Under the pieces are notes generated by a model, which saw nothing but the letters and a program-made list of their open reading frames with translations, was not told the DNA's origin and did not search any database. Position numbers and translations under genes: made by a program. A stretch of DNA of 64,000 bases from NCBI RefSeq assembly GCF_018350175.1, contig NC_058368.1, forward strand, positions 6,014,001 to 6,078,000, written 5' to 3'. Below, piece after piece: positions 3,760 to 33,711 of the stretch. Origin of the DNA: Felis catus. Its lineage: Eukaryota. How positions within the stretch are numbered: position 1 is the stretch's first letter; the number at the start of each line of letters is the position of its first letter.

Positions 3760-3833
3760 CTGGAAGAAATCAGAACCATGTCTGCAGGAAGGAATTGTCC
3801 ATTTGAGGCCTTCACAATGTCACCCACCTTGAC
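3760..3833 (-). CDS. ATP8A2-like exon 7 (74 nt), actuator domain start
   Basis: tttcccggtttaaaag|GTC ... AG|gttagt. Encodes VKVGDIVKASNGQFLPADMVLISS. Confidence 0.93.
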
Positions 3834-4002
3834 CTTTTAAACCGGGAAAGAAACAACCGAAGCATAAATTCTAAAAGCACAGATAGAGGCAAAACATGTC
3901 AAATATTCTTAAGAAAAATTCTGATACGAAAATCCTGAAGCCATGCTAAGAAACTTCGGCTACATTAGAACAATTTTATTTTTTCAGGGATTCATTCCTC
4001 TA

Positions 4003-4236
4003 AAGTAGTTGCTCTTAACCAGAGTCTCTTTTGCCCTCCCCCTCCACCAGGGACCTTTGGCGATGTCTGGAGACATTTTTGGTTGTCACGATGTTGGGGT
4101 TTTAGGGGGTCGTGCTATTGGCATCAAGTGCCCGGAGGCCGGGGATACTGCTAAACATTTGGCAATGCACAGGACAGCCCCTACAACAAATAATTTTCTG
4201 GCCCAAAATGTAAGCTCTGCCAAGGCTGAGAAATCC
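4003..4236 (+). mobile_element. MER20-like hAT DNA transposon
   Basis: tgtctggagacatttttggttgtcac...gcacaggacagcccc...gcccaaaatgt consensus phrases. Confidence 0.8.
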
Positions 4237-4757
4237 AAACAGACCTACTGGTACTAGTATTTTTCCCATGATACGCTGTTCATACACCATCACGCTGTAA
4301 CTGCTTGCCTAATGATGTGTTTTTCTCTGCTGGTCTGTGAACTTTATGTGGAACAGGGAATGAATGAGTGAATGAATGAATGAACAAATAAATAAATATT
4401 TGTTGGCTGAATGTATAAATGAATTCCAACTTGTAAGTAAGACAGAGATGTAAATACTAGGAACAATACAGAGGGAAAACAATATGAATTCTTGATGCCT
4501 CTGCTCTGAGAGAAGCACCCCGCCCACCCGCTGGAGCCTCACTCCTCTCCTCTTGTCATTCTCCCCTGACATTCTGCCATCAGGAATGGAGTGGCTCTGT
4601 CAGTGGCTTTGTTCTCTTCGTCTCAATGAGAGGAGCAAAATGCAATCATGACTGTTTTATCTCTCTTAGGGAAAGAAATACTGATACCTAGAAATCAAAA
4701 CATTCTTATAATTAGCCTTCAAAGGAATTTTACACTGGTCAGCAATTAATTCCTATT

Positions 4758-4976
4758 ATTTTTAAGTTTATTTATTTTGGGAGAGAGAGAGAGACAGCAC
4801 GCACAGGTGCAAGCCAGGGAGGGGCAGAGAGAGAGAGAGGGAGAGACAGAATCTCAAGCAGGCACCTCACTGTCAGCACAGAGCCTGACCTGGGGCCGGA
4901 TCTCACGAACCATGAGATCATGACCTGAGCGAAATCAAGAGTCGGATGCTTAACCAACTGAGCCACCCAGGCGCCT
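4758..4976 (-). mobile_element. SINEC
   Basis: Reverse SINEC head (gagccacccaggcgcc), (AG)n, TSD cagcaattaatt. Confidence 0.9.
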
Positions 4977-5356
4977 CAGCAATTAATTATTGATGAGGAC
5001 AGAGTCGGTATCTAGCCTGACTAAAAATAAAAGTATGCCTTGTATTTATATCCCAAGGAAAATATATTCACGGAAACATCCCCTGAGGTAGTCTCCATAC
5101 AAAGGCTGCCTTCTACCCTGAGCAACAGTCTGTGAAGCATCATCTTTAGATATTCCAGGAAATGACACAGAAGTAACCCAGAGGCACATTAGGAAGCACG
5201 TAGACTTGCAACCACTTAGACTTCAATTCAAATCCTAGTTTCACCACTTGTGGGCTGTGTGACCTTGAGCAAAATATACTTAATTCTCTTTGATCCTCTA
5301 CTTCCTTCATCATGTTTCATAGATAAAAATCTGTAACTTTAAATATGGTAAGCGCC

Positions 5357-5589
5357 AGGAATGCTTGTGTGGCTCAGTCAGTTAAGCGTCCGACTTCGGC
5401 TCAGGTCATGATCTCGCGGTCCGTGAGTTCGAGCCCCACGTCGGGCTCTGTGCTGACAGCTCAGAGCCTGGAGCCTGCTTCGGATTCTGTGTCTCCCTCT
5501 CTCTCTGCCCCTCCCTCACTGATGCTCTGTCTCTCTCTCCTTCAAAAATAAATAAAACATAAAAAATAATAATAATAAATAAATATATA
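5357..5589 (+). mobile_element. SINEC_Fc
   Basis: gtggctcagtcagttaagcgtccgacttcggctcaggtcatgatctc, A-rich tail. Confidence 0.9.
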
Positions 5590-5634
5590 TGGTAGGCGCT
5601 TCTTACTAAGTTAAAAGTTCAAATACGTTCTTAC

Positions 5635-5675
5635 CTCTTTCCACATAATCACTTTCCATTCATTCTCTCTGAACA
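5635..5675 (-). CDS. ATP8A2-like exon 6 (41 nt)
   Basis: gtttttcag|TG ... GAG|gtaaga. Encodes VFRENEWKVIMWKE. Confidence 0.92.
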
Positions 5676-6061
5676 CTGAAAAACATATAGCTATATATTA
5701 ACTGTAACGATTGTATTAGGTAAAGTCCAAAATAATAAAAGATACTTTTCCAAAAATCTAAATGTGTTTCATTACAAGGTACTGTCTTTATTAATTTAAC
5801 CTTGACATAAAGTGGAAAAATATGTGAACTGTGTTCACATACACTGCACCAAAATAGAGCAATATGTATAATATAATGTAACATAAGTATAGACAGATGA
5901 CAGGTAGAAGCTACGTTAAGTTACTTCCACTCCTGAAAAAGTTCGCTGCTACATGCTAAAATACTGGCTGATAGCCCAAAAAATAACCTATATTTCTAAT
6001 CAATTATCAAGATAGCACATATCAAAACTAGGACTGGGAGAGACTATGTAACACCCAGATC

Positions 6062-6246
6062 TTTTTTTTTTTCTTCTAATGTTTATTTTTGAGAGGGAGA
6101 GAGAGAGGGAGACACAGAATCTGAAGCAGGCTCCAGGCTCTGAGCTGTCAGCACACAGCCCAACGCGGGGCTCAAACTCCTGAACCATGAGATCATGACC
6201 TGAGTGGAAGTCAGACATTTAACCGACTGAGCCACCCAGGTGCCCC
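6062..6246 (-). mobile_element. SINEC_Fc
   Basis: Reverse SINEC, TSD ccagatctttt. Confidence 0.9.
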
Positions 6247-6500
6247 TCCAGATCTTTTCTATTGACATAAGAATTGCTCATATCCCAAATATTCCAACTT
6301 CCCATCTCTTTTCTTTTCTTTTATCCTAATTAACATAATTGATGATTCTTACATATGGCAACAGTTTCCTTCTGGTTGCTGTTTGTGTCTGTATTCCTTT
6401 AAATAATAGAACGTTATGAAACACAGTATGTGTATCTATTTGGTCAATTTGGGTATTTTCTTACAGTGAGAAGAGATAAAAGCTCAGTCTAATATCTTAC

Positions 6501-6546
6501 CTATTGTGTTCTTTGTGTTGACTAATCTGTCTGCCATGTGTCGTTT
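6501..6546 (-). CDS. ATP8A2-like exon 5 (46 nt)
   Basis: ttctgtaacag|AAA ... G|gtaaga. Encodes KRHMADRLVNTKNTI. Confidence 0.92.
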
Positions 6547-7433
6547 CTGTTACAGAAAAAAATCCATTACATCGGAAGTTCAGAGTGAATAATTCACATT
6601 ATAATACAAGTCACAGTAGGTTTAAGAAAGAACAGAGGCAGCAAACCTGTCAGTCTCTTCTTTGTTTTGCCCTTATCTGACTCTCCTAAATGAGAGGTCA
6701 TCTAAGGGAGGGGCTAAGTGTGGCCTCGGAGACGGCTTGCCTTGGTTAACATCCCAGCTCTGCCTCTTACTAATGCAGGCTTCGCAGGTCACTAACCTGT
6801 CCGTGGCTCCATTTAAGTGAACACATGCAAACACACACGCACGCACACACACGCACATCCACGCACATTTTACAGGGCCTCCTACATAATGAATGCTACT
6901 GAAAATGTTAGCACATTATAGGTTGCTTTCAATGACTATATTTATAGTTAAACACATAAGTAGCAATCGTGGATTTCGCTCCAATTTAGCCCAAGGCTTT
7001 AAATCAAGTTTGAGAAATTCTTTCATATTATAAACCAATCAAAAGACCAGCAACCAAACAGATTTTCCTGATGTCCTATCTTAATAAGATATGAAGGAAT
7101 TCAGCACAAGAATATGAATAACAAATAGTTAGCAATTTTGGAAAATGAGCATGAGGATTGTGAGTGAGGAGGAAGGGGCCTCTGCTGGAGTGGCCCAGCT
7201 GTCTTTATGAGGTAGGGTCAGAGCAAACAGAAAGCAATCTTAAATGTCTCCCTTCTTTTCCTTCACAGGTAAAACCTGCAGGCTCTCGTGAAATTATAGC
7301 TATGACAAGGTTAAAGGAGAAACGAAGTCACTGCACAATTCCTGACCTCTTAGGATCTTCACCTCTGGTAGCATTATATCCCCAAAGATACTAACATAGT
7401 TCTTATGACCACTATTAAGTCCTTCTGGTTTCT

Positions 7434-7435
<2 letters not shown>

Positions 7436-7484
<49 letters not shown>
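7436..7484. repeat. (CA)n microsatellite
   Basis: Perfect CA run. Confidence 0.95.
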
Positions 7485-7486
<2 letters not shown>

Positions 7487-7503
7487 TAAAATTTGAAACC
7501 TTA

Positions 7504-7739
7504 GGGGTGCCTGGGTGGCGCAGTCGGTTAAGCGTCCGACTTCAGCCAGGTCATGATCTCGCGGTCCGTGAGTTCAGCCCCGTGTCGGGCTCTGGGCTGA
7601 TGGCTCAGAGCCTGGAGCCTGTTTCTAATTCTGTGTCTCCCTCTCTTTCTGCCCCTCCCCCGTTCATGCTCTGTCTCTCTCTGTCCCAAAAATAAATAAA
7701 CGTTGAAAAAAAAATTAAAAAAAAAAAAAAGAAAGAAAA
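7504..7739 (+). mobile_element. Young SINEC_Fc (first of tandem pair)
   Basis: ggggtgcctgggtggcgcagtcggttaagcgtccgacttcagccagg. Confidence 0.93.
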
Positions 7740-7964
7740 GGGGCGCCTGGGTGGCTCAGTCGGTTAAGCGTCCGACTTCAGCCAGGTCACGATCTCGCGG
7801 TCCGTGAGTTCGAGCCCCGCGTCAGGCTCTGGGCTGATGGCTCGGAGCCTGGAGCCTGTTTCCGATTCTGTGTCTCCCTCTCTCTCTGCCCCTCCCCCAT
7901 TCATGCTCTGTCTCTCTCTGTCCCAAAAATAAATAAACGTTGAAAAAAAAAATTTCTTTTTAAG
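7740..7964 (+). mobile_element. Young SINEC_Fc (second of tandem pair)
   Basis: Near-consensus copy with CpGs intact. Confidence 0.93.
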
Positions 7965-8121
7965 AATTTGAAACCTTAGAGTTTAATTCACATTTCACAT
8001 CAACTACAGGTTTAAAGAATTATACCAGTTGCAAAACACGCAGCTAGGAAAAAGAGCGAGAAATACACCTCATGTACTCAAGGCAAGAGTTTTGAGAACA
8101 TCTCACTAACAGTAAACTTAC

Positions 8122-8220
8122 ATAATCTTCTACAATCTCTTTGATGCCTGAAACGGTAAGTATAATCATCAAGGGCAAGAGAGTTGTATATTTTCCCGTT
8201 GGAGACACATCTGGAATTTG
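8122..8220 (-). CDS. ATP8A2-like exon 4 (99 nt), TM1-TM2 loop and TM2
   Basis: ttttcgcag|CAA ... TAT|gtaagt. Encodes [33 protein letters not shown]. Confidence 0.95.
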
Positions 8221-9828
8221 CTGCGAAAACAGAGTTACACTATGAATTCTATGATACATTTTTCTTGTATTTTGCTTAACGCTAAAAGCCAGGCTACTCG
8301 TGGCATACCCAGGACATGAAAACAACATGCGCTGTTAAATAAAAAGGGGAAAGAGACTCTTAGCACATCGAAACCATCCCTCGAGCATGGCGTGCAACGC
8401 TACATCATGGGAAAGCCACCAGTGCGCCTACTTAACGCTTCAGTCATATGTCACCTTCCCAAGAGAATACTGTTAGTACGTTTTGAATTCAGAGGCTTGG
8501 ACTGTATTCTGAAGCTGACTGTATTTGAAGCTTTCAAAACTTAATTGTCTAAGATAGCATCCTTTCCAAACAGTTAAAGCCAGAAGGTCAGTTATCGTAA
8601 CCGAATCTTGCTTCTTCTTGAGGCGGAAGGGAAATTTTTTGGAGGCCTGGGAGAATAACATTGCTTGGGTACAAATTACCTGTGGAGAGGGCTCCGGGGC
8701 CATGCCCCACTGTTTAAAGATAGGAGAAATAAAGCGACAAGCAGACTGGCAGTTTTCTGATGGACGCAAGGGTAGATGAGGTTGTAAAGGAGATCCTTTA
8801 ACAGATTTAGAACAGCTCTCAGGCCTGTATTTCTAGACTTGGGTCTAGAGAGTGGATACTCTCTATGCTGCCTTATTTCCTGCTTGTTATTTCTTTGTGC
8901 AGCCAAAGAGTATCTATTCTGAAGCGCTCAATAATTCTCGTGGTTACTTTAAAAGCAGTCAGACACAGGAAGAAAGGGAGAGGTTCTAGGATCGCTGAGG
9001 CTATCAATGAAACCTGCCTTCCAAATAACTTGCCTCTGCCTGACTTCTCCATCTCTCTGCAGTGCACCCCAAGCCCGTCGTGTTGCTCCCAGGCCCCCCT
9101 CTCTCTTTTCCTCAGTTAAAGCCTCGCCGGAGCTGGTCACTTCACTGTAGCTCCTGACTGGCACTGCCTTCTCACTACAGTCCAAGCTTCTGAATGTAGC
9201 TCACGAAGCTTCTCATTACCTGGCCTCGGCCAACATCTTTAGCTTCTTCTCTACACTCCAGACAAAATTTTTACCATTTCCAGAACATTTCACATGCTAG
9301 AGAAAATTTTAACACTTTGAATTTTCACAATGCAAAACATATAAGACCTTCTTGGAGAAAAGCCTACCTCTTTCCCTCCCCCACTGGGTCCCCGGTTCTC
9401 ACAAAAGGCGACCAGTGTTTCCGGTTGCTGTGCCTTTGCTCACACGGTCTTCTGTGCCCCAAAGGTCTTCTCTTCTTCCACTGACCTCGACTTACTGTTG
9501 AGCTCCTCATTCTCTAGTCTTTGGCTCAAATGTCTTCTTTTTCAGTACTTTTCCTGAACCACTCGCCCTCAAGCCCAGAGTAGGCCGTGTTCCCCTAGCA
9601 CTTTGTAAATATTTCTTAAAGCACTTGTATGTTAAGACTACCCCCTCTCCAAAGGGAGAACTACATCTGACAATTCATCCTTGAATTACTAATTTCATGC
9701 CCAGGTTTTGGTACACACTATGTGATCTCTATAAATTTTTGCTAATGCCAATCTTCTGTTTAAGGTCAATTCAACAGATTCATTAAATTCTTATCTCAAA
9801 GCTTGGCCGTTTTGAAGGCACTGTTTCT

Positions 9829-10050
9829 TTTCTTTTTTTCTTTCTTTCCACGTTTTTATTTATTTTTGAGAGACAGAGACAAAGCATGAGTGGGGGAGGG
9901 ACAGAGAGAGAGGAAGACACAGAATCTGAAGCAGGCTCCAGGCTCTGAGCCGTCAGCACAGAGCCAAATGCAGGGCTCAAACTTACCCACTGTGAGATCA
10001 TGATCTGAGCTGAAGTGGGACAGCTAACCTACTAGCCACCCAGGTGCCCC
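9829..10050 (-). mobile_element. SINEC_Fc
   Basis: TSD ttgaaggcactgtttct. Confidence 0.9.
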
Positions 10051-10429
10051 TTGAAGGCACTGTTTCTATTCTCAAGGAATTTGCAGTTTGCCAGGAGAAA
10101 TAAAACCAATTATAATGCATAGCACAGATTACTGCTACAGAAGATAAGGGAGGGAGAAGTCAGCATGGGACACGGCATTTAGTGGAGTTTGGAGGAGGGT
10201 GGTTTTGAGTTGTGCCTTTAAGAGAATGGGTGGGGTACAGCCAGATGAGTGCCTTCTGGGTTAGAGAATAGAATGAACCAAGGCCTAAAGAGAGGAAGGA
10301 AACTGAAGAATTGTGAGGAGACTTGCCTCTCAGATTGTGTTGGGTTGTAGGGTTCATGACAAAAACAAGGTTGAAGAAACAGGAATAAACCAGATTATGG
10401 AAGGCCTTGAATTTAAGTGTTTTGAAAAG

Positions 10430-11775
10430 ATGTCATTCCTAAAAGAAAACACAGAGGGAAAGCTTCCAGACGTTGGTCTTGGCAAAGATTTCTTGGATAG
10501 GACGCCAAAAGCACAGGCAACAAAAGCAAAAAACAGACAAGTGGGACTACATCAAACTAAAATTCTTCTGCACAACAAGGGGAACCATCAAAAAAATGCA
10601 AAGGCAGACTACAAAATAGGAGAAAATATTTGAAAACCCTCCATCTGGTAAGGATATAGAAGGAACTCCAATTCAACAGGAAAAAAAAAAAAATAATAAT
10701 CCAATCACAATGGGCAAAAGACTTGAATAGACATTTCTCCAAAGACAACATACAAATGGCCAAGAGGTACATGAAAAGGTGCTCAATGTCACTAGTCACC
10801 AGGCAAATGAAATTCACAACCACAATGAGGTATCACCTCACACATGTTAGGATGGCTATTAATTAAACACAGAAAATAACAAGTGTTGGTGAGGACGTGA
10901 AAAAATTGGAATCCTTGTATACTTCTGTTGGGAATATAAAATGGTGCTGCTGTTACAGAAAATAATACGGAACTTTTTCAAAGAAATTAAAATAGAACTA
11001 CCATATGCTTCAGCCATCCCACTTCTGGGTATTTATCCAAAAGTTGAAACCAGGATCTTGGAGAGATAGCAGCACTCCCACATTCAGCTCAGAATTATTC
11101 ACAATAGCCAAGATATGGGAACAACATCAATGTCTGTCGATGGATGAGTGGATAAAGAAAATGTGGCATCTATACAATGGGATATTATTCAGATTTTAAA
11201 AAGAAGGAAATTCTGGGACACCTGGGTGGCTCAGTTGGTTAAGCAGCCAACTTTGGCTCAGGTCATGATCTCGCGGTTTGTGAGTTCAAACCCCGCATTG
11301 GGCTCTGTGCTAACAGCTCGGAGCCTGGAGCCTGCTTCGGATTCTGTGTCTCCCTCTTTCTCTGCCCCTCCCCTGCTCACGCTCTGTGTCTGTCTCTCAA
11401 AAATAAATAAATGTTAAAAAAAATTATAAAAAGAAGGAAGTTCTGCCACATGTAACAACATGGATGAATCTTGAAGGCATTATAATGAAGTAAGCTATAG
11501 AAAGACAAATACTGCATGAATCCACTTATGTGAGATATCTAATGTAGTCAGATTCATGGAGTCAGAGTAAAATGGTGGTGTCAAGGTCTAGAGAGAGGGA
11601 GAGATAAGGAGTTGTTATTCAATGAGCATAAAGTCTAAGTTATGCAAGATTAAGAAGTCCTAGAAATCTGCTGTACAACAGATGTCTATGGTTAACACTG
11701 GTATATCATACACTTAAAATTGTTAAGGGGGTAGATCTCACATTAAGTGTTCTTACTGAAATATTAAAAAAAGAA
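10430..11775 (+). mobile_element. 5'-truncated L1 (ORF2 end and 3'UTR) interrupted by a SINE
   Basis: L1 ORF2 C-terminal phrases (FLDRTPKAQATKAK; agacatttctccaaagac) and A-rich end. Confidence 0.85.
11215..11428 (+). mobile_element. SINEC_Fc inside L1
   Basis: SINEC head, TSD aaaaagaaggaa. Confidence 0.9.
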
Positions 11776-12157
11776 GAGAAAAGAAAATTAGGTATTTCAA
11801 ACTAGCATTTGGACTTTCTTTAAACTCTTTCTTTTAATACAATAAAATTATCCTCTCATGGAGGTGGCATACATTATAAAAGTTAGTCCAATAATATCTC
11901 ATTAATGATCTAAATCAGGAAGAACTGTGGGCCAATTCATCTACTGGGCACCAACATCCCCCAAATGAGAATTTTTCATCCCCCAAATGAGGATTTGGAT
12001 GTCTTACTGAGTAACTTAAATATTGTAAGAAGAGAGTTCTCTTCTTGCCGTGTTTCAATTTATTCTGTACGTTCAATTTTTATTTCAGCTAAATGAGCTT
12101 TTTACATTTTTCTTTTTTAAAAAAAGCATAATCCAGTAATGTGTTCAGGAATATTAC

Positions 12158-12257
12158 CTGCAATATAGTAATGAACAGGAAGAAAGCATTAGCAGCTTTG
12201 CTAAACTGCAGACACAGATATCGAGGGAGGAATGACCATATGCTGTACTTGGCTGTG
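12158..12257 (-). CDS. ATP8A2-like exon 3 (100 nt), STAKY motif and TM1
   Basis: cag|C ... CAG|gtaata. Encodes [34 protein letters not shown]. Confidence 0.93.
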
Positions 12258-12731
12258 CTGTAGGCAAAAAGAAAATTACCACTGTCAGTTCACACTCTGA
12301 ACTCTAAAAACACCAAAGGAAAACCCAGAAGTGGATAAAATATTATTATAAAACACTGACTCTTTTCTGAAGATTTTTTTGTCGTTTTTGAACACTCATT
12401 GTTACCTGAAAACAATGTCAGGACAAAGAAAGAATTTTCTCCATCTCAGGAACTAAGAACTACGAACACAATAGACAAGCAGGAGGTATTCCACATTTTC
12501 TAATGGCCTGTAATTCTTATAACAGAACTCCTAATCAGCATCTGTCTCATAGTTCAAGGATAACAAGAGCCAGCAATGTTTCTCCCTTCTCTCCCTCCCA
12601 GGAGCTTTATCATTAAAAGTTATCTTAAATCCATCTACCCCCAAATGCCTAGGCCATGTCACGGACAAAGAAAACCATCACGGGTGTGTTTCTTTTTTTC
12701 TAATTAATCTACTACATTTAAACATCAGAAA

Positions 12732-12859
12732 GGGGCGCCTGGGTAGCTCAGTCAATTAAGCCTCTGACTCTTGATTTCAGCTCAGGTCACGATCTCACAG
12801 TTCCTGAGATCAAGCCCGGCGTAATGCTCTGCACTGACAGTGTGGAGCCTGCTTGAAAT

Positions 12860-12910
<51 letters not shown>

Positions 12911-12987
12911 CTCCTCTGCTTGCATTCTCTCCCCCCCCACCCCCGCTTTCTCTCTCTCTCAAAATAAATAAATAAACTTTTAAAAAT
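12732..12987 (+). mobile_element. SINEC with long (CT)n
   Basis: ggggcgcctgggtagctcagtc head. Confidence 0.9.
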
Positions 12988-15449: not shown

Positions 15450-15493
<44 letters not shown>

Positions 15494-20792: not shown

Positions 20793-20826
<34 letters not shown>

Positions 20827-21560: not shown

Positions 21561-21705
21561 CTGATGGAGTTTTTGCAGAAGTTGTTCCTAATGGGCTCAT
21601 TGAGGTAAATGGTGCGGACTTTGGACGCGTCTGATCCTTGAAGAGAGTGTTGGCAGCCCATCTTTTCCTCCACCTTCTGACAGATTAAAGAGAAATCAAC
21701 AGGTC
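21561..21705 (-). CDS. ATP8A2-like exon 2 (145 nt); first ATG at 21661-21659
   Basis: Acceptor ctttgtcttcttgttgtag|G and donor AG|gtgag. Encodes GPVDFSLICQKVEEKMGCQHS...RTIYLNEP...KNSI. ATG is in strong Kozak context (AAGATGG). Confidence 0.88.
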
Positions 21706-22129
21706 CTACAACAAGAAGACAAAGGAATGTTACCCAGAAGTGCAACTGAAATCAGGCTCCAGGGAACGCATCAAGTGCATTGCATGTTGGACCTCTGTTG
21801 AGTCCCCAGGGAGGAGACTGTTTTCCTAGCCTCCAGTTCTTCACCTGTCCCATTTCTCCAGGGACCAGACATCCAAGACCTCCCCTGTCACCCTGCATTG
21901 GCGAGGCGGTTCTGGTTCCCTCATGGCTACCACATCCCCATTCCCTCCCCAGCCCTGGAGGCTCTGGGTGGGCACTGACATTCAGCCCGGGCAGGAGACT
22001 GGGGAAGATGCAGTGAGATAGGGCCCAGCAGCTGGCCTCAGAAAAAGAATGGGCGAGGGGAGAAGGTGAATAGGGCTGGGGGAAGCGGAGGGGAGAGTGT
22101 CTTGGCTCAAGAGCAGTAGCTCCATGACC

Positions 22130-22751
22130 AGAGGGCAGCCCCCTGACCAAGATGGCCTTAACATTCCCCCCAGCTTGACTAAATTGGAAATAGATGCCTT
22201 CTTGTCTCTAGTCCTGAATTCCCTTTCCTTTTTACTAACGTGAAGCATTTACTTTGGAAAAGGTGATTGTATGTTGTTATTCTACTCCCTTTGAAATGTA
22301 TAGAAATGCCCTGAAAAGCCCCTTGCCAGCTTTAAGATCCATGGGGAAGCTTTTCTCAAGGACCTGGGAGATCCCTGAAATGTAATCATCAAAGAAGTTC
22401 TCCATTCCATGGTAGGGTAGGAACCTAACTTCAGGGGGTGCCTTGCTCGAAGTGTAAAATTCTCACATGTCATGAAGATAAGAGAAAATGTAGTTATTCT
22501 TTGGGTAAAGCCAGTTAGCAGACACAGGTGGCCAACAATCCTCCTCCTTCCCCACCCCAGCTTTTTAAAACTCCCCCACCTTTGTTTCAGCCAAGGTGAG
22601 CTCAGTCTCTCTCCCCTATTGAAATAGCCTTGAATAGTCTTCCTGGCCCCATTAACTTCACCCAGGTAACATATATTTTGATATCTCCTACCCCCAAAAT
22701 AAGTGAGATTTTTGACCAAGGGGCCAAGGAAAGTCTCATTTGTTTCTGACA
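22130..22751 (+). mobile_element. ERV1-class (MER4-group-like) LTR fragment
   Basis: ttctcaaggacctggga...tgaaatgtaatcatcaa...gggtaggaacctaacttc phrases, ends ...ttctgaca. Confidence 0.55.
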
Positions 22752-25068
22752 AGAAATAGAGGCTAGTGTGCCCTCAACAGTAAGAAGCATTTTTATGTCT
22801 GAGTCCATGTACCCAGTTTTTCTCAGACTTGCCCAAGGTCCTGTAGTGCAGGATTAATAGCGATATTCAAGTCCTTGAGTTACGAACTTTCTCACCATCA
22901 CTGTATGTTTGGTAAGAGAGCTATTTCTCTTCACGCGTTTCCCTAACAACGCATCCATGTGTGAGGGTGAAGAAACAAAAAGTGAGTTACAGTTTACTAA
23001 GGGGCTGCTGATGAAAATAAATAAAGCTCTAAACACCTGACTAGACATGTATGATCTTCAAGGCTATCAACAGGCTTCAAGGAGGAGCCTGTTGACCTGC
23101 TGCTACCTGACAGAAGGGTGCTGGTGACCAAGTGTCCCCAGTTGAAAGGCCTGAGCCTTTAATGTCCCGGCTCACACACTAGGTGCCTCTCACCACACCA
23201 ACATGTCTCTTCAGCAAATAACTGGTCTCTTAGAGTGGCCCCATTAAATTGTATAATAGTAAAAAGTGAGCCAACATAGAATCTATGAAAACGTAATGCA
23301 GCCCTTTGCCCATAAAAATGACAAAGCCTAAGGAACAAAAGACAAAGGAAATTCTTGTTTGCACATCAAAAGAATTAAGTTACAAAACACACAGAAAATA
23401 CATTTCCTGTAAAAGAAATTAAATATGGCCATTATGAAACAAGAGGTCAAAAATAGAAATACTAAATTATTTTTTGAAGTGATAATGCAACTGCAGAAGA
23501 ATTTTTAATGTGACCTGAAAGAGCTCAGAAAAGAAATGAAAGAGAAATATCTTAAGAAAAAGGAAAGCCACCTTAGAAGGAACTAAGGTAACAGAGAGCT
23601 GAAAAGAGGCATGTCCTGCACAGACTATGAAAACTAAGTAAAATGAAATGAAAAAGAGCACAGATGATAAAGAACTGAAGAAAAATTATAGATGTGGGAC
23701 AAAGGATCCAACGTATGCATATTTCTTGTCCTTAAGAAATTTAAAACATGAAACAAAAACACTGAAAGTCGTAGTAGAATAGATCTTTCTTTAATGAGAA
23801 CAAAACAACTAAGAAAAATCTAACACAAATTCCAAGACACTTCCTGGTTAAGTTTATTGGACTTTAAGAATAATGAAAAAAAAAATCATTATTAGACCAG
23901 CAACTTGTTTATGAAGTTTGGAAAGAGAGGGACTATTGGGGCCCCACGTAGAAGTCATCACTGAGGCAGGAGACCAGATGTCCTATCAAGAAATGAATGA
24001 AAAGCTGGTAAACAAGATGTAGAAAGCAGTGATTTACCTGGATACAAAAACAAGGGTTTAGGTAATCATAGGCCATCTTATTGTGACCGAACTTTCTGTT
24101 GACACAGCTTAAAATGGTGACTTTTTTTTTTTAAGGCTTTTTAAATTCACTACTCAAGCGAGTAGCTATTATCAAGCCAAATTTTCATCAAAAACAAAAT
24201 TCAAGAGAATTAAGTAAAAAATTCAAAAAGCACCTTCCTCCTGAAGAAATGTGCCAATTAACACCAAAATTAACAGTGGGGAAACAGGGGTTATGTAAGG
24301 CAAGGCTCGGGTCATGCCCAAGACAGAGACTCTGAGAGAACGTCATAGTCACAGAAACTCATCTCAAGGTCAGGGTGAAGTTGAAAGAATGTTGTCCCAT
24401 TATCCATTCAACCACTCCCACAGGGCCTTGGTATAATTCTGACAAAGGAGAGAGAGAAAGAGAGAGATAGAGAGAGATGGGAGGGAGGGAGCTTTCTAGC
24501 AGAATAACCCAAATTGGCATCATCAGAGTTGGCCAAGAGATCTCAAGTACTGTCAGTTTAAGATGGTTCAGAATTAGTAGTGCTGCAAAGTAAAAGCAGA
24601 TAAAAACACATACAAAGAGAGGGAGAGAGAGAGAAATAGGGCAAAAGCAGTATGTTGGCAGATGATGGCTATGACTTTTTCACAGAGGCAAGAAAACCAA
24701 GACATCTCAAACAAAGTAGGTCAAGAATATTACAGTTGGATTTATAGTGAAAATGCAGAAAAATAAAGACAAGGAGGAAATCTTAAAAGCGGCCAGAGAA
24801 AAATAAGAGGAAGGAATGTTTCCCCCAAATTTTATGAAACTGCATTATGACACCAAAACCAAAGTCATTACAAGAAAAAAATAGTACAAATTCAAATCCA
24901 TTATAAGCATGAATATAAAAATCCTTAGCAAAAAATCAAATCTACCAATATGCAACATGATTACACATCATGACTTTTATGCACTGAATTGCATCTTCAC
25001 ACCAAAAAATGATCCGTTGATGTCCTAACCCCCAGTACCTCAGAATGTGACTTTATTTCAAAATAAGT

Positions 25069-25665
25069 TGTCTTGGTCTGCTCAGGCTGCTCTAACAAAA
25101 TACCACAGACCAGGTAGCTCATAAACAAATTTATTTCTCATGGTTTTTCTTTTTTTTTTTTTTAATTTTTTTTAACGTTTATTTATTTTTGAGACAGAGA
25201 GAGACAGAGCATGAACGGGGGAGGGGCAGAGAGAGAGGGAGACACAGAATTGGAAGCAGGCTCCAGGCTCTGAGCCATCAGCCCAGAGCCTGACGCGGGG
25301 CTCGAACTCACAGACCGCGAGATCGTGACCTTAGCTGAAGTCGGAGGCTTAACCGACTGAGCCACCCAGGCGCCCCTATTTCTCACGGTTTTGAAGGCTG
25401 GGAAGTCCGAGCTCAAGGTGCCAGCATGGTGGTTTTGGTGAGGGCCACCTTCCTGGTTCGTGAATTCTCATTGTGTCCTCACATAGTGGCAGGGGCTAAG
25501 GACCTCTCTGGGCCCTCTTTTATAAGGCATCGATCCCATTCGTGAGGGCTCCTTCGTGCTTAAGCACCTCCCAAAGGCTCTACCTGCTAACACCCTCACC
25601 ATTGGTGCTTAGGATTTCAACACATGGATTGGGGGGAGGGGGCCACAAACATTCAGACCACAGCG
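25069..25665 (-). mobile_element. MLT1A/MST-like MaLR LTR nested in the previous LTR
   Basis: tgtcttggtctgctcaggctgctctaacaaaataccacagac...aaacattcagaccacagc, TSD taagt/taagg. Confidence 0.8.
25148..25376 (-). mobile_element. SINEC_Fc nested in the inner LTR
   Basis: TSD tatttctca(t/c)ggtttt. Confidence 0.92.
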
Positions 25666-26057
25666 TAAGGTCCTTGCGGCGTTACCCAAATTGAGATAAT
25701 GTCATAGGGTGGACCCTAAGCCAGTATGACTAGTATCCTTATGAAAAGGGGAACTCCGGTCACAGAGACAGACACACACATAAAGAGAAGACAACGTGAA
25801 GAGACAGGAAAATGCCACACGAACATGGAGGTACCAAGTGGAGTCGTGCTGCTGCAAACCGGGGAACACCCGGAGCTACGAGAAGCTGAAGAGGCAAAGG
25901 ATGACCCTTCTCCTATGTATTTCAAGTGGAGAGTAGCCCTGCTGACCTTGATCTTACACTTCTGTACTTGAGAATTCTGACACCATAGATTCCCGTTGTT
26001 CTAACTAAGTCACCCAGTTTGTGGCACTTTCCCTATGACGAGCCTAGGAAACTGATA

Positions 26058-26520
26058 ATGACCTAGTGGGGTTTATTCCAAGAAAGGAAGTTTGATTCAT
26101 CATTTGAACATAAAATGATGTAATTTATCATCTGAAAGACTAAAGGGAAAAAAAACAAACCCTACGGTATCTCAACAGATACAGAAAAGGCATTTGACAA
26201 AGTTCAACATCAAATGATCAAAACTCTCAGCAGGCCAAGAAAATCGGGGAAGTTCTTCAACCTAATGAAGGATGTCTATGAAAAACATGCAGCAACTATC
26301 AGACTTAATTGTGGAAAACCAAATGCTTTCTTTCTAAGACTGGTAATGATGCAAGACTGCCCTTCCTCACCGCACACATACAGTATTGTACTGGAGGCTT
26401 TATTCAGTGCAAAAAGGCAAGAAAAGTAAAATTCAAAGAGAAAGGAAAGAAATAGAAGTCTATTGGCAAACTACATGAGGGCCTACGAAAAATACTCTCA
26501 AAGTATCTATTTTCAAAACT
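26058..26520 (+). mobile_element. Old L1 ORF2 RT fragment (continues from ~24830)
   Basis: ORF 26214-26429 resembles L1 RT (MIKTLS...FFNLMKDVYEK...SIVLEAL). Confidence 0.75.
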
Positions 26521-27169
26521 GTTCTAGTGTAACATGTAAAAAAAAAAAACCTTGGAAATTAAGACTCCCATCTTCATAAAGAGAAAAATAAAAAACATAT
26601 GACTAAACTGAAAACCAATGACTCTTCTTAGATCCATCAGAGAACTGAGGTCACAGGGAAAATTGCCGGCCCCAAATCTAAAGAGATAGGTGAATACAGA
26701 GAACCAGAATTTATCTCTGCAGCCAGCAACTGGCAGAAACATGTAGAGGGTCATTGATTAATTGCAGAAGGCTTAACCATGCCCCAGATTTGAGATAAGT
26801 CCTAGAAGGGGACCTTAAGGAATACCACTAGACTCTCAGGGTGACGATCAAAGAAAAGTCCCCTCATGCTTCCAGTAAGGGAAGGGGAAAAGGGACCATT
26901 GTAAAATATGCTCAGCACACTGTGTTCTCCTCAACAAGGGCTTGTCCTCAAGGAAAAGTGTTTTACCAGAGCCTCATCAACATGGGAGAAGGGAAATACC
27001 TAACTTTAGCTCTTTCTAGTCTTCCTGTCTTACTTAAAAGAAAAACACCCTAAAAAGCACTTGTGAAGAACAAAACCAAATCAAAGCATTATCACAGCTG
27101 GAAGAAGTGGCTAAGAACCTATTTAAGAAGGAGTCTCTAGAGAAACCAAAATACACAGTGAATCTACAG

Positions 27170-29108
27170 CTGCATACGGAACAGTTTCCAGCGGTAGGGA
27201 GGGGGAGGCTAAAAACTAGTTTAGCAAACTCCTACACATAAAGTGAACGAAAAAAAAACCCACATCGGAGTGGGTGGGAAAGGCTGACACTACCTTCCTA
27301 TAAACCCCACTCTAGGTATGACAACCCACAATCAGGAGGGAACTCGAAAAACCTGAGCTTCTCCCTGGGGCATGAAGGGTTTGAACCCTACATGTGGCAC
27401 CTCGACTTTTACCTGCACCTTAGAAAGGAGCCCCCAAAACATCTAGTAGGGCTTGCATCGCTGAGACTCACAAGGCTATGGTGAACTGAGAAAATTGTTC
27501 TTAAAAGGTCTCACATGGGGCGCCTGGGTGGTGCAGTCGGTTAAGCGTCCGACTTCAGCCAGGTCACGATCTCGTGAGTTCGAGCCCCGCGTCAGGCTCT
27601 GGGCTGATGGCTCAGAGCCTGGAGCCTGTTTCTGATTCTGTGTCTCCCTCTCTCTCTGCCCCTCCCCCGTTCATGCTCTGTCTCTCTCTGTCCCAAAAAT
27701 AAATAAATGTTGAAAAAAAAAATAAAAAAAATAATAAAAAAAAAAGGTCTCACATGTGCAAACACCCACCCCAGGGCCGAGCACAGAGGCGGCCAACTAA
27801 AAAGTGCCTAAGCTTTCTGTTAAAGACATTTATTTTCTCATGTTAACGCACTGGCCTACGGGGCTGACATCTACATTAACGCACATCTGGGGGTCTGCTG
27901 AAATTCTCTCCAAATACGGAGGCCCGTGGGCACAATCTCTGCTCTCCCCCTTTGCCTCACTCCAGCCCTCTGCTATCTCCTAGAGTGGAGCCTGTACCCC
28001 CGCCTGGTGACTTCATTTTTACAGCTGGAGGGCTATGCTCATGAGTCCCACTGGACCGTAACCAATGGAGAAAGAGTTCGCACCCAATTTGCACCCCCAA
28101 TGTCACAACAGAGAGACAACAGACTGAGGAGCCCAGGCTCTCTGTGAAGCAGGCCAACTTATCTTCACAGGTGTGATCTGAGTGGCAGGGTTCTAATCAA
28201 ACACATATCTAAAGACTCAGTCATCCTCTCCAGAGACCTTGGAGGGTGGGTTCTGTGTTTGTACTCTGCCACCCTCAGAGCACCAATATTTCCCAGAGGG
28301 GAGCTTTCACACACAGCTGGTACCCCAGTTTGCACATCGGTGCCCCAGTTTTTGTGACTGCCACTTCAGGGGATGCTGCTTGACTTCCTGGCTCTGGTGG
28401 CCAGTGGGGGTTGCATTCCTGGGTCTCATGGGATGGGACTGTAACGATCAGAGAGCTGGTTCTTGGCCAGCACCACTCTCAGGGCGTGTCACAGGCAGCA
28501 CACGGAAACACATGCCCGGTCGTTCTGTGGAAAAGGCCCATCTGCTGGTCCTGGAGCTTCAGCCTGAGGGCAAGCTACTGGTTTGGCACACAAGGGGCCT
28601 GATGAAGTACTCTGCAGATACAGAAGCTGGTGGATGCTGTCTGTGTGCTCTCCCTCTGCCTCACTCCGGGTTGCCAGTATCTGCCAGAAAGGAGCTGGTA
28701 CCCTCGCCTGGCACCTCAATTTTTGTGACTGCTTCCCAGGGGACACTCTAGGTTGCCTGGCTCCGGTGACCAGCAGGACTCATGCTTGTGGGTCCCATAA
28801 GGCTATAACCAACAGAGAAAGAGTTCTTAACCAACTACCATCCCCAGGGCAGGGCAGAGTGGCAACAGTCTGCGAAACAGGCCTGTTAGCTTTATAGCTG
28901 CAGCCTGGGGGACAGCCTTCTAATTAAGCACATGTCTCAGGGCTAACTGGAATCCTCTCCAGAGACCTCAGACAGGGGCACTATCTTTGCAGCTGCTACC
29001 CAGGGGACGCTTCTAGATTGCCTGAGTCTGGTGGCCAGGGGAGCTTACACTCATGGTCCTGAAGGACTACACATATTTGTATACATTAAAAACTGCCACC
29101 TGAGGGTC
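27170..29108 (+). mobile_element. L1 5'UTR-like region with ~350-370 bp degenerate monomers
   Basis: Recurring motif gtcccat..gactgtaacca..gagaaagagttctt at ~27480, 28060, 28440, 28805 and partially 29055. Confidence 0.5.
27517..27745 (+). mobile_element. Young SINEC_Fc
   Basis: TSD aaaaggtctcacat. Confidence 0.92.
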
Positions 29109-29634
29109 TATCTACCAAGCAGGAAATAAAGACACTAACTTTAAAAGATGTCTGCACACCCATGTTCACTGCAGCATTTTTCACAATAGGCAATATATGG
29201 AAACAACCTAAGAGTCCATTGGTGAATGAATAATAAAGAAAATGTGGTGTATATATACACAATTAAACATTATTCAGCCATAACAAAGAGGAAAGTCTTG
29301 CCATTGGCAATGACATGGATGGACTTGAGGGCAGTACGCTAACTGAATTAAGACAGAGAAAGACAAATACCGTATGATCTCACCTACATGTGGGAATCAA
29401 AAACAAAAACAAAAGCAAACAAACAAGCTTGTTCAATAAGAAGATTGATGATGGCCGGAGGTGGCAATGGGAGATGGGCAAATTTTTAAAGAAGGTCAAA
29501 AGGTACAAACTTCTGGTTACAAAATAAGTAAATCCTGGGGATGTAACAAGCAACATGGTGACTATAGTTAATAATACTGTATTGCATATTTGAAAGCTGC
29601 TAAGAGCAAATCTTGAAAGTTCTCATGGCAAGAC

Positions 29635-29860
29635 TGGGTGCCTGGGTCGCTCAGTTGGTTAAGCGTCTGACTCGGCTCAGAGCATGATGTCACGGTTCAT
29701 GGGTTCGAGCCCCGCATCGGGCTCTATGCTGACAGCTCAGAGTCTGGAGCCTGCTTTGGATTCTGTGTCTCCCTCTCTCTCTGCCACTCCTCGGCTCATG
29801 CTCGGTCTGTCTCTGTCTCTCAACAATAAATAAACGTTAAAAAAAAAAAGTTAAAAAAAA
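29635..29860 (+). mobile_element. SINEC_Fc
   Basis: TSD aaagttctcatg(g/a)caaga. Confidence 0.9.
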
Positions 29861-30103
29861 GTTCTCATGACAAGAAAAAAAAATTTATAACTATGCATGA
29901 AGACAGATGCTAACTAGATTTGTGGGTGATCACTTCGCAATATATACAAATATTGAATCATTATGTTGTACACCTGAAACTAACGTTATATGTCACCTAT
30001 ATCTCAATTTAAAAAAAAAAACACTTAAACATAGAATTACCATAGGATCTGGGAATTCCACTTTTAGATATATACCCAAAAGAATTAAAAGTAGGGACTC
30101 AAA

Positions 30104-30322
30104 GGGTGCCTGGGTGGCTCAGTCGGTTGAGCACCCGACTTCAGCTCAAGTCATGATCTCATGGTTTGTGGATTCAAGCCCCGCGTCGGGCTCTGTGCTG
30201 ACAGTTAAGAGCCTGGAGCCTGCTTCAGATTCTGTTTCCCCCATCTCTCTCTGCCCCTCGCCTGCTCATGCTCTGTCTCTGTCTCTCAAAAGTGAATAAA
30301 GATTTTTTTTAAAAATTTTTTA
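30104..30322 (+). mobile_element. SINEC_Fc
   Basis: TSD aagtagggactcaaa. Confidence 0.9.
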
Positions 30323-31477
30323 AGTAGGGACTCAAACAGAAACTTGCACACCAGTGTTCACAGCAGTGTTATTCACAATGGCCCAAAGGTGGAAACAATC
30401 CAAATGTCCGTCAACAAATGACCTGATAAACAAAATGTGGTATGCACATATAATGGAATATTACTCAGCCTTTAAAAAGAATGAAATTCTGATACATCCT
30501 ACATGGATGAAACTTGTAAATATTATGCCAAGTGAAACAAGGCAAACACAAAAGGACAAATACTATGATTCCACTTATATGAGGTACCTAGAGTAGTCAA
30601 ATTCATTGAGACAGCAAAAACTAGACTGGAGGTTACTGGGGACTGGGGGAAAGGGAAAAGGAGAGTTATTGTTGAATGGGTATGGGGCTTCTGTCTGGGA
30701 TGATGAAAAAGTTCTTGAAATACACAGTGGTGATAGCTGCATGATTTTGTGAATGTATTTAACACTACTGAATTGTAAACTTAAAAGTTATTTGATGTAA
30801 GAGACTTTTAAAGATTGAAAATAAACTAAGGGTTGTTAGAGGGAAGTGGGTGTGGGATGGGCTAGATGGGTGATGGGCATTAAGGAGGGCACATGTTACA
30901 ATGAGCACTAGGTTTTGTATGTAAGTGATGAATCACTGAATTCTACTCCTGAAACCAATGCTGCACTGTATGTTAACTAACCAGAATTTAAGTAAAAATT
31001 TGAAAAGAAAAAACACAAAACAACAAGTGGTTTGAATGGTAGATTTTCTGTGTCTTTAACCACAATAAAATAATAGGCGATAGATATTATAAAACTATTA
31101 TAATTAAACAGTGACTAGGAACAGAATAAGCCAGGAAAAGTGATCATCTATACTGGAGAATAATGAGTGGCATTATTAAGTCTTCAGGAAAATAAAGGCC
31201 ATTCTGTAAATTATACTGGACTAATTGGTTAACAGTATGGGAGGAAATTATGTCTCTAATTTCCATCACTTACAAAAATACATTTCAGACAGGCTAAATT
31301 GTCTAAGTATGAAAAGCAAAATTTCAAATATTTAAAAGAAAGAATGAAATCTGTATGAGATCAGGGTATGGGAAAGATTACTTCAAAAACGTTCAAAAGC
31401 ACGGACCATAAAGGAAAATACTAATTAATCTGACTTCACGAAAACAAAGAATCTTTTGTGCATTAAAATAGTAAAAC

Positions 31478-31650
31478 AGGCACCTGGGTGGCTTTGTTGG
31501 TTAAACGTCTGACTTTTGATTTCAGCTCAGGTCAAGATCTCCAGGTTCATGGGATTAAGCCCCACCTTGGGTTCAGAATAAATAAACATTTAAAAATAAT
31601 AAAAATATATATATATTTTAAAAAAGAAAAAATAATAAAACATTAAAAAA
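31478..31650 (+). mobile_element. Internally deleted SINEC
   Basis: Head present, CT-rich middle missing, A-rich tail. Confidence 0.8.
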
Positions 31651-31992
31651 TTTTAAAAACAAACCACATACCACTAGAGTATATTTTAATGCATATAACT
31701 GACACAGGTTTTCTACCCAGATGTTTTAAATGATTCCCACAAATCAATTAAAAAATATATAAAAACATAAGGAAAATGTATGAATTGGCAATTAATTTAG
31801 AGAAAGATAAAAGCAAAATATATATATGACGATAGCTCAAATTCAATCAGGCTAAAGCTAAAAACCAAAGAGCATGACAAGGGTGGGTGAGGGCATGGGG
31901 CATTAGAAACCCGGAGGGGACAGGTGGGAGTATAAATTAATAAAAGCATTTTAGAGAGTAAGTGAAGACTGCAGGTGTCCCACAATCCAGTA

Positions 31993-32465
31993 GAGTAGTC
32001 GCCCCACATCCATGGGCGATGGGTTCCAAGACCCCCAGTGGATGCTTGAAACCACAGAGAGTACCAAGTCTTACAACCACGATGTTATTTGCTATGCATA
32101 CACACCCATAGAAGTTTAATTTGTAAGTGAGGCAGGGTAAGAGATTAACAGCAATCATGACAAAATAGACCAATTAGACCAACATACTGTAACACAAGTT
32201 ATGTGGATGTGGTCTCCCTCTCTCTCTCTCTCTCAAAATATCTGAAAGTACTGTACTGACCTTCTTCTTGTGATGATGTGAGATGTTAAAATGCCCACAT
32301 GATGAGACAAAGCAAGGTGAATGATGTGGGCATCATGACCTAATGTCAGGCTACCAGTGACCTTCTGACCATGCGTCAGAGGAGGGTCCTCTGCTTCTGG
32401 ACTGTGGTCGACCACAGATGACTGAAACCATGGAAAGCAAAACCACAGTTAAGAGGGCACCACTG
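31993..32465 (-). mobile_element. MER44-like TcMar-Tigger element
   Basis: gttccaagacccccagtggatg...actgaaaccatggaaagcaaaaccac, degenerate TIRs flanked by TA at 31991 and 32466. Confidence 0.8.
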
Positions 32466-32852
32466 TATTCCCATTTCTAAATATAACTTTTAAAAAATAA
32501 CTCATATGTGTATACAAGAAGATGTGAACAAGGATGTGTATTTCAGCACCATTTGTAACAGTGAAAAAAATACAGAAACATCTCAATGCTTATGAATAAA
32601 GAGTTAAGTAAAACCCATCTTAATCATATGATGAAATATTGTGGAGACATTTAAAAGAGTGCTACCAATAGATGATAAGATGATTGATATACTAGGTAGA
32701 GCTCAAAAATCTAAGAGTGATGTGAAAATGATATACACATTACTCTACTAAATCATTTATGTAAACTTTTAAGAAATATAACTACAATATTGTGTCTTGC
32801 TTATGGATCTATGCTTTGTAAATATATATTTGTAAATGCATGTATGTAAATG

Positions 32853-32883
32853 TGTTTTTATTTTTCAAAATGTTTATTTATTT

Positions 32884-32924
<41 letters not shown>

Positions 32925-33043
32925 CCCAAGCAGACTCTGCACTGTTGGTGCACACAATCTGACATGGGGCTCAATCCCGTGAGCTCATGACCTGAGCTGA
33001 AATTGAGTTGGACGCTTAACCAAATGAGCCATCCAGGTGCCCC
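32853..33043 (-). mobile_element. SINEC
   Basis: Reverse head, (AG)n. Confidence 0.88.
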
Positions 33044-33635
33044 TGTAAATGTACCTTTAAATGACTAAAACCACACATAACATATTCAGAATAGTAATTA
33101 CCTGCAGCAGGGGCCAAGGGAGGAAAACAGGAGGGCTGAGCCTAGAGGCAATGGTTAAAGGTGATTTTTGCTTTGTTTTATGTTCAATTATTTATTTCTA
33201 AAAAAAAAAAGAAATTAAATAAAAAATTAAAAACATAAAAAATAAAACGTTAGAGGTTGTGGTGACAGTCTGTGTGTTTGTTGAATTTTATACACGTGCA
33301 CAGACACACATCACACAGACTGACTGCAGTGGCATCCACCAAACAGTGACGGTCCAAATTACTGGGATATTTTTAAGCAGTAGGTAAATCACATAGGAAT
33401 CTGTCATCTCACTTTATCTTTCTCTGGCCACTTAGGGTCGAGGACACTGATCCCAGCCTCTCACACCTGTCCCACAAGATTTCAAGGGCAAGAATCTGCG
33501 ATGAAAGAGAAGGACGGACTCCCTGGGTGGGCCTGGGACATTTGAGAATGGACCCAAGTTCAGTTACTGGAAGAGTTGTCCAGCTGCTGCTTAAACGGAC
33601 AACACACTGAAACAAAGGACTTCCTAGTTACTCAC

Positions 33636-33711
33636 CAGTCAGGCTACGGACTCCACTTTTGACTGGAAAACTGACCTTTTTAGGGTTAATATCCTGAATG
33701 TCTTCCCTCAG
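33636..33711 (-). CDS. Candidate exon 1 (ATP8A2 exon-1 homologue); in-frame segment LREDIQDINPKKVSFPVKSGVRSLT+G starting at a CTG, may be 5'UTR only
   Basis: Strong donor CTG|gtgagt at 33635. Phase 1 matches the exon-2 acceptor. KVSFPVKSGVRSLTG aligns with remembered ATP8A2 KMSLPRRSRIRSSVG. No ATG; in-frame TGA at 33729-33727. Confidence 0.5.

Follow-up and report, generated by a model that had tools for sequence, protein, structure and literature searches.

Fourteen P4-ATPase genes are counted in human and 15 in mouse (the latter with ATP8B5), and only two of them, ATP8A1 and ATP8A2, are placed in class 1a in the available part of the review that gives these counts (PMC4937031). The analysis described here concerns a candidate third member of that class, encountered in a stretch of 64,000 nucleotides of the Felis catus genome (contig NC_058368.1, positions 6,014,001 to 6,078,000; ‘the window’ in what follows). 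The window very probably holds the 5' end, with the start codon and six coding exons, of an intact third class 1a P4-ATPase gene, which arose as an inverted tandem duplicate of ATP8A2 in the placental stem and is termed here the ‘paralogue’. An initial examination of the DNA, made from its letters alone and without database searches (the ‘sequence-only reading’), had described such a gene as possibly poorly characterised, and that description holds: databases predict the gene, it is missing from the class 1a list just cited, and a literature search (supplements lying outside its scope) found no paper naming or describing it, including under the names ATP8A3, ATP8A2-like, ATPase IB-like and ATP8A2L.

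The closest described relative is ATP8A2 itself, which is at once the sister gene and the chromosomal neighbour of the paralogue and has the same set of domains. The two proteins are alike in QQ, I115, E123, N302, PISL, K873/N874, DKTGT, DGET, TGDK and GDGAND, and differ at their beginnings, where the paralogue has a different, short N-terminus (MG[C/W]xxS). ATP8A1 (phospholipid-transporting ATPase IA, represented by 6k7g and related structures) belongs to class 1a like the paralogue and has the catalytic and lipid-pathway residues in common with it, but is set apart by a full-length identity of 55% to the cat paralogue, by its location on another chromosome (contig C11) and by its position as the outgroup in both trees described below. 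A precedent for a lineage-restricted, additional P4-ATPase is provided by ATP8B5 (FetA), present in mouse and not in human in the available text of the same review (PMC4937031); ATP8B5 belongs to class 1b and is unrelated to the present duplication, and is likened to the paralogue by description only. A further partial parallel is human ATP8A2P1 (‘ATP8A2-psi’), described in the accessible portions of two papers as a transcribed pseudogene and an intron-containing copy derived from ATP8A2 (PMC3974860; PMC4344757), and entered at 67 kb on chromosome 10 in a table of the first (PMC3974860). Unlike the cat paralogue, it lies on chromosome 10 and does not adjoin ATP8A2 or RNF6, and its source may be either ATP8A2 or the paralogue.

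Exons of the window and the coding region as a whole

The gene lies on the minus strand, and six short exons of 145, 100, 99, 46, 41 and 74 nt, each with an AG acceptor and a GT donor, fall within the window (Table 1). The reading frame that begins at the ATG at 21661 is MGCQHSLQGSDASKVRTIYLNEP... All six exons display 100% identity (tblastn) to three Felis catus RefSeq isoforms (P0010, P0011 and P0013) over their residues 1-153; these isoforms carry the predicted name ‘phospholipid-transporting ATPase IB-like’, and exact spliced mapping onto the genome returns the cat isoforms codon for codon. The window exons therefore belong to an already predicted gene; its detection is due to RefSeq, and its characterisation is new.

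The sequence-only reading had assigned seven exons to this gene. Six of these are the exons that match the RefSeq proteins; the seventh, a 76-nt ‘exon 1’ at 33711-33636 (minus strand), has been dropped as unsupported. It is free of stops in frame and contains no ATG, the DNA around it is CpG-poor (observed/expected ratio 0.33), and none of 17 orthologue models with an N-terminal extension upstream of the Met aligns to it; the chance of 40 open codons upstream of the ATG is about 15% ((61/64)^40).

When an exact exon walk was carried beyond the window, isoform X3 (P0013) mapped onto the cat DNA as 35 coding exons (3324 nt, 1107 codons), every one flanked by AG and GT, with no stop inside the reading frame; the gene runs along the minus strand from its ATG at C1 6,035,661 (C1 denoting the contig that holds the window) to its stop at 5,843,019. 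Isoforms X4 and X6, which map as well as X3 over the DNA compared, include one more in-frame exon of 111 nt, bringing the number of intact coding exons in the genome to 36; isoform X6 also skips four N domain exons. The state of the downstream exons had been named beforehand as the place where the proposal of an intact gene might fail, and the exons encoding DGET and DKTGT proved to be intact, with no stops or frameshifts. A processed retrocopy or pseudogene is contradicted by the 35 coding exons with canonical splice sites, the lack of any stop and the introns held in common with ATP8A2.

Relation to ATP8A2 and age of the duplication

The true cat ATP8A2 is a separate gene on the plus strand, extending from C1 5,259,576 to at least 5,623,156, one exon of which (locus L004) matches with 100% identity proteins entered as ‘ATPase IB’ for felids, primates, bats, whales and other mammals; ATP8A1 is found on C11, where one exon likewise matches ‘ATPase IA’ proteins with 100% identity. 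The paralogue and ATP8A2 are convergent (tail to tail) on chromosome A1, with their 3' ends approximately 220 kb apart and with coding regions of 193 kb and at least 364 kb, respectively. The earlier claim that the window gene is neither ATP8A1 nor the orthologue of ATP8A2 is thus borne out, both by the separate cat loci and by the clade of its own that the gene forms (see below); one-to-one orthology with ATP8A2 belongs to the other cat locus, and the paralogue clade lies outside eutherian ATP8A2.

The identity between the two genes had been estimated by hand, against a remembered human ATP8A2 sequence, at about 98 of 139 residues (~70%), and the measured value is almost the same: over residues 16-153 (RTIYLN..LISS), 97 of 138 positions (70.3%) are identical to felid (Prionailurus) ATP8A2, and likewise to that of Pongo (orang-utan). 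Over its full length the cat paralogue is 62-65% identical to ATP8A2 of several species, and 93%, 82%, 76% and 74% identical to its orthologues in jaguar, golden jackal, sheep and elephant. It could be argued that the window exons are simply the cat ATP8A2 orthologue and that the figure of 70% arose from a misremembered human sequence, and the plain name ‘ATPase IB’ borne by the paralogue in rabbit, elephant, degu and camel records (RefSeq/UniProt) lends itself to that view. It has virtually no chance of being correct: a second, plus-strand gene at C1 5.26-5.62 Mb has the exon that is 100% identical to ‘IB’ proteins, the value of 70.3% is a BLASTP measurement against felid ATP8A2, the rabbit, elephant and degu ‘IB’ rows fall within the paralogue clade of the tree, and the camel ‘IB’ rows, which were not placed in a tree, bear the clade-wide substitutions described in the next section. 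Separate locus, tree and identity have already refuted it.

The introns of the two genes were compared through pieces of DNA around 12 further ATP8A2 exons and that of L004, with the exon boundaries projected via pairwise protein alignment; for the thirteenth ATP8A2 locus no mapping was possible, as its exon is absent from P0013. In all 12 mapped exons of cat ATP8A2 the AG and GT signals occupy positions homologous to those of the paralogue and the phase agrees, and exon size is equal in 11 of them, with a single exon measuring 128 versus 125 nt. The 145-nt exon of the window also has 145 nt in cat ATP8A2, both copies open with GACCTGTT, and the start Met of the paralogue is homologous to the ‘MSRATS’ Met of ATP8A2. 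The comparison of exon sizes covers the 145-nt exon and 11 downstream exons, so that the earlier statement that the window exons match those of ATP8A2 in size stands for the one of them that was compared in the cat gene. Homologous intron positions and phases identify a genomic duplicate with its introns retained, as the sequence-only reading had proposed, rather than a retrocopy; judged by its sequence, the paralogue is an inverted tandem duplicate of ATP8A2.

The age of that duplicate was addressed with a main tree of 55 protein rows (23 of the paralogue, two mouse-lemur fragments, three doubtful rows from non-mammals, 19 of ATP8A2 and, as outgroup, eight of ATP8A1) computed under LG+G4 with a quick search. 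All 25 mammalian paralogue rows fell into one clade, with a support of 100 in the Shimodaira-Hasegawa-like approximate likelihood ratio test (SH-aLRT); eutherian ATP8A2 was the sister group of this clade (joint node 100), the marsupial ATP8A2 rows lay outside both (98), and the branching inside the paralogue clade followed the species tree (Afrotheria, Euarchontoglires, Laurasiatheria). A subset of 29 rows, analysed under the site-heterogeneous model LG+C20+F+G4 (quick IQ-TREE search), recovered an identical topology, with support values of 100, 100 and 96. ATP8A1 was the outgroup to ATP8A2 and the paralogue in both trees, and the stem branch of the paralogue clade was long in both (0.43-0.45). 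A clade of all mammalian ATP8A2 that leaves out the paralogue was rejected by the approximately unbiased (AU) test with a log-likelihood difference of 45.7 and p=0.0033, the tested group having been chosen once the tree was known.

The nesting of the paralogue with eutherian ATP8A2, with the marsupial genes outside, dates the duplication to the eutherian stem, once marsupials had diverged and before Afrotheria and Boreoeutheria separated. The suggestion that the duplicate is old is sustained by that origin in both trees and by the AU test. An origin earlier still (therian or before), with its eutherian appearance created by gene conversion with ATP8A2, or by marsupial loss combined with a misled tree, is suggested by the location of the two genes as neighbours in inverted orientation, an arrangement of gene copies that permits gene conversion. 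Such an origin is nevertheless quite improbable, since two substitution models yield the same well-supported nesting, the earlier-origin topology is the one rejected by the AU test, no row from outside the eutherians groups with the paralogue, and long-branch attraction would have drawn a fast-evolving clade outward and not into the mammals. An older duplication had also been hinted at by three odd rows (Leptobrachium P0088 and Pelusios P0089 and P0093), and these group with ordinary frog and turtle ATP8A2. A search of protein representatives returned the sea-lion paralogue P0047 (84%) as the sole close representative, with other vertebrate ATP8A proteins inside 50% clusters, and was uninformative on timing.

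Distribution, conservation and proposed function

Homologues were collected with a word-indexed search of protein sequences, the query being the stop-free frame that surrounds the 100-nt exon; this search gave 154 matches from 188 candidates, of which the best 120 were listed. Among the matches listed are at least 80 mammalian rows, comprising 79 database proteins and one Logan open reading frame (P0005), and most of the 79 proteins, the three cat isoforms among them, are named ‘phospholipid-transporting ATPase IB-like’. The paralogue is annotated, among these matches, in at least eight eutherian orders: the rows come from Carnivora, Artiodactyla (pigs, ruminants and camelids), non-muroid Rodentia, Lagomorpha, loris, hedgehog, elephant, tenrec and golden mole, and mouse lemur rows were found in a separate protein search. 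No anthropoid, muroid, bat, perissodactyl (horse), cetacean, xenarthran or marsupial paralogue is among the matches listed, even though the same database includes ATP8A2 entries for many of these groups; the absence concerns annotation alone. The lack of anthropoid rows is compatible with the suggestion of the sequence-only reading that the gene may be absent or pseudogenised in human.

The naming of these records is inconsistent. In rabbit, elephant, degu and camel the paralogue goes by the name ‘ATPase IB’ alone, and in stoat by ‘E3 ubiquitin-protein ligase RNF6 isoform X2’ (the rows affected are P0029, P0057, P0060, P0071, P0073-P0075 and P0083). Orthology that is based on names (‘IB’ versus ‘IB-like’) is thus already confused in the databases and invites orthology errors.

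The full-length protein has the domain set of a P4-ATPase. In P0013, four Pfam domains score above their cut-offs (PhoLip_ATPase_N, PF16209, 83.5 bits; PhoLip_ATPase_C, PF16212, 190.2 bits; Cation_ATPase, PF13246, 59.3 bits; E1-E2_ATPase, PF00122, 34.3 bits), and PF00702, at 22.6 bits, falls under its cut-off of 26.4. Among solved structures, the best match to the 99-nt exon is 6k7g_A (E 1.3e-9), which is also a phospholipid-transporting ATPase. Motifs were counted in the 72 paralogue rows of at least 900 residues (of the 79 listed). SDKTGTLT, with the phosphorylated Asp, and GDGANDV occur in 72 of 72; LDGETNLK of the A domain is found in 66, the others being five gaps and one aberrant row; and LTGDK is found in 69, in the exact form LTGDKQETA in 52 and varying after LTGDK in 17. 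The PISL core of M4 is unchanged in 64 rows and replaced by conservative variants in three (PVSL twice, PISV once), with the full HNLIPISLLVT in 62. The protein accordingly combines DKTGT, TGDK and GDGAND with the DGET and PISL (not PEGL) that mark P4-ATPases, a use of DGET and of PISL in place of PEGL that is supported by the available part of a review (PMC4937031). Its assignment to class 1a follows from its nesting within ATP8A2 in the broad sense, with ATP8A1 as outgroup, and from the retention of QQ (M1) and K873/N874 (M5).

Conservation extends well beyond the motifs. Of the 508 alignment columns that are invariant in 19 ATP8A1 and ATP8A2 rows, 379 keep their residue in at least 90% of the paralogue rows, and 85% of the cells at such columns keep the ancestral residue. 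The residues of the lipid pathway were located with an alignment offset of 11, which agreed with the identity of each residue named. Those that are kept are Q95 (72/72 rows), Q96 (71/72), I115, E123, N302, I364, L367, K873 and N874 (the last two in 65/72 rows each, with five gaps and two aberrant rows). Two others have been replaced throughout the clade: N359H (M4) is present in all 67 paralogue rows that have a residue there, and A119S (M2), which corresponds to S91 of the cat protein and lies in the 99-nt exon of the window, is present in all 71. Twenty-six more clade-wide changes occur at columns otherwise invariant in ATP8A. According to the available portion of the review, N359 is important to lipid affinity and A119 corresponds to a selectivity residue of Dnf1 (PMC4937031); as both of these lipid-pathway residues are changed across the clade, the lipid affinity or selectivity of the paralogue probably differs from that of ATP8A2.

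By its sequence likeness to ATP8A1 and ATP8A2, the product would work as they do, as an ATP-driven flippase. Its cycle would pass through an aspartyl-phosphate at DKTGT, followed by dephosphorylation mediated by DGET, and would move an aminophospholipid from the outer or luminal leaflet of the membrane to the cytosolic leaflet. The pump would probably be paired with a CDC50 subunit, and probably also be autoregulated by the C-terminal segment containing GYAFS.

The same records might instead describe an unprocessed pseudogene, or a gene decaying in cat, that is intact by chance or through generous prediction and yields no working pump. The paralogue clade evolves quickly: branch lengths summed by hand on the 55-row tree give a path from carnivores to primates of 0.455 for the paralogue versus 0.066 for ATP8A2 (approximately sevenfold), and a high substitution rate also fits a partial relaxation of constraint. 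Not every predicted isoform can be a working pump, since X3 skips the exon with K873/N874 and X4 skips a 123-nt exon; none of the 19 sequencing runs that matched a 184-nt exon is recorded as RNA; and the seeming absence of the gene from the annotation of several orders suggests that its loss is tolerated. Several further points count against an intact and functional third flippase. The GYAFS segment is exact in only 48 of the 72 rows; the orthologues are automatic gene predictions, several of them isoforms or partial, so that 72 rows are not 72 species; constraint was judged from conservation at the protein level; and flipping, CDC50 binding and the substrate are properties that we infer for the paralogue. 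Decay is all the same given only a slim chance, because all 35 coding exons map exactly, have canonical splice sites and are free of stops across 3324 nt, and because they are accompanied by catalytic motifs that are invariant over 72 rows from eight orders, which have evolved separately for about 100 million years, and by the ancestral residue in 85% of the cells at ATP8A-invariant columns.

If the intact gene is accepted, a more far-reaching scenario may be considered, although as a whole it is doubtful and is offered tentatively. Placentals would ancestrally have possessed three class 1a flippases, the third of which (‘ATP8A3’) would have been neofunctionalised, with N359H and A119S giving it a lipid preference or affinity unlike those of ATP8A1 and ATP8A2. 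It would have been maintained by selection in carnivores, ungulates, lagomorphs, many rodents, strepsirrhines and afrotherians, and lost independently in anthropoids (including human), in muroids, and perhaps in bats, horses and whales. Were a third flippase indeed lost from both human and muroids, both standard models of flippase biology would be without this pump. Independently of that scenario, species with a conserved third class 1a flippase, such as dog, cat, pig, cattle, sheep and rabbit, may compensate for the loss of ATP8A1 or ATP8A2 or respond to it with other phenotypes. The natural pair of N359H and A119S provides a ready-made experiment on how M2 and M4 residues set lipid affinity, and the paralogue is a clear example of a gene born in the eutherian stem and then, it seems, lost repeatedly in separate lineages.

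Mapped features, upstream DNA and neighbouring genes

Table 1. Mapped features of the paralogue and its surroundings (plain numbers are positions in the window; numbers preceded by C1 are positions on the contig)
Feature	Position	Strand	Remarks
145-nt exon	21705-21561	-	5' leader of 44 nt, open in frame, followed by 101 coding nt (residues 1-33 + 2 nt)
Start codon	21661-21659	-	inside the 145-nt exon; protein opens MGCQHS
100-nt exon	12257-12158	-	residues 34-67; transmembrane segment 1 (TM1); last residue is the first Q of the QQ motif
99-nt exon	8220-8122	-	residues 68-100; carries S91 (A119S versus ATP8A1/ATP8A2)
46-nt exon	6546-6501	-	KRHMADRLVNTKNTI + 1 nt
41-nt exon	5675-5635	-	residues 116-129
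74-nt exon	3833-3760	-	VKVGDIVKASNGQFLPADMVLISS + 2 nt
DGET exon	3.8 kb beyond window start	-	next exon after the 74-nt exon
DKTGT exon	C1 5,984,235-5,984,147	-	from exon mapping
111-nt exon	C1 5,935,277-5,935,167	-	carries M5 residues K873/N874; skipped by isoform X3
123-nt exon	C1 5,909,557-5,909,435	-	skipped by isoform X4
CpG island	44801-46100		GC 0.63, CpG observed/expected 0.94; sole CpG island of the window; the ATG exon lies 23 kb downstream
594-residue open reading frame	C1 6,091,179-6,092,960	-	13 kb past window end; C-terminal RING-H2 finger (zf-RING_2, 45.4 bits)

The paralogue sits between ATP8A2 and a RING-H2 E3 ligase gene. The latter is the 594-residue open reading frame of Table 1, the upstream neighbour on the same strand, for which the nearest clusters in the Atlas consist of chordate RING E3 ligases 667-748 residues long; it is probably RNF6, because of its RING domain, of those clusters and of the stoat record in which the paralogue is misnamed as an isoform of RNF6. 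A second CpG island lies approximately 7 kb upstream of this frame, at about C1 6,099,401-6,100,700.

The CpG island of the window is possibly the promoter of the paralogue and the site of a non-coding first exon, and is put forward as a candidate for both. The first exon of the elephant-seal orthologue model P0056 aligns within it, to 45033-44890 (minus strand), with 71% identity and an E value of 5e-13; the cat DNA has no Met there, and has GC in place of GT at the homologous donor. Two other upstream segments that are used by orthologue models were not adopted. The segment at 21981-21877, employed as upstream sequence in canid, badger and puma models, looks like an extension specific to those predictions, and so does an upstream exon of the stoat model (SLTLLCLLAQTFYHLPSSQEEG), which has 68% identity to 32324-32259 (minus strand) and meets an in-frame stop in cat.

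The first six codons (21661-21644) differ among lineages. They encode MGCxxS in felids and in sciurids (squirrel, marmot and ground squirrel) and MGWxxS in most other orders, and the Gly is missing in beaver, hedgehog and chinchilla. An MGCxxS start fits the consensus for N-myristoylation and palmitoylation, and a Trp at position 3 does not; a lineage-specific lipid anchoring of the N-terminus of the paralogue is therefore possible.

Several elements unrelated to the coding sequence were also recorded. In the intron between the 99-nt and 46-nt exons, a 237-nt unit whose beginning resembles a carnivore tRNA-derived short interspersed element (SINE) is present in two tandem copies (94% alike) at 7503-7951, and an (AC)24 microsatellite is found at 7437-7484. 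Rfam, run over the whole window, produced a single match, a tRNA at 60364-60440 (plus strand; 35.2 bits against a gathering score of 29), which in all likelihood represents the tRNA-like head of a SINE. Finally, an open frame of 232 residues at 49481-50179 (plus strand) resembles by eye the C-terminal part of ORF2 of the long interspersed element LINE-1.

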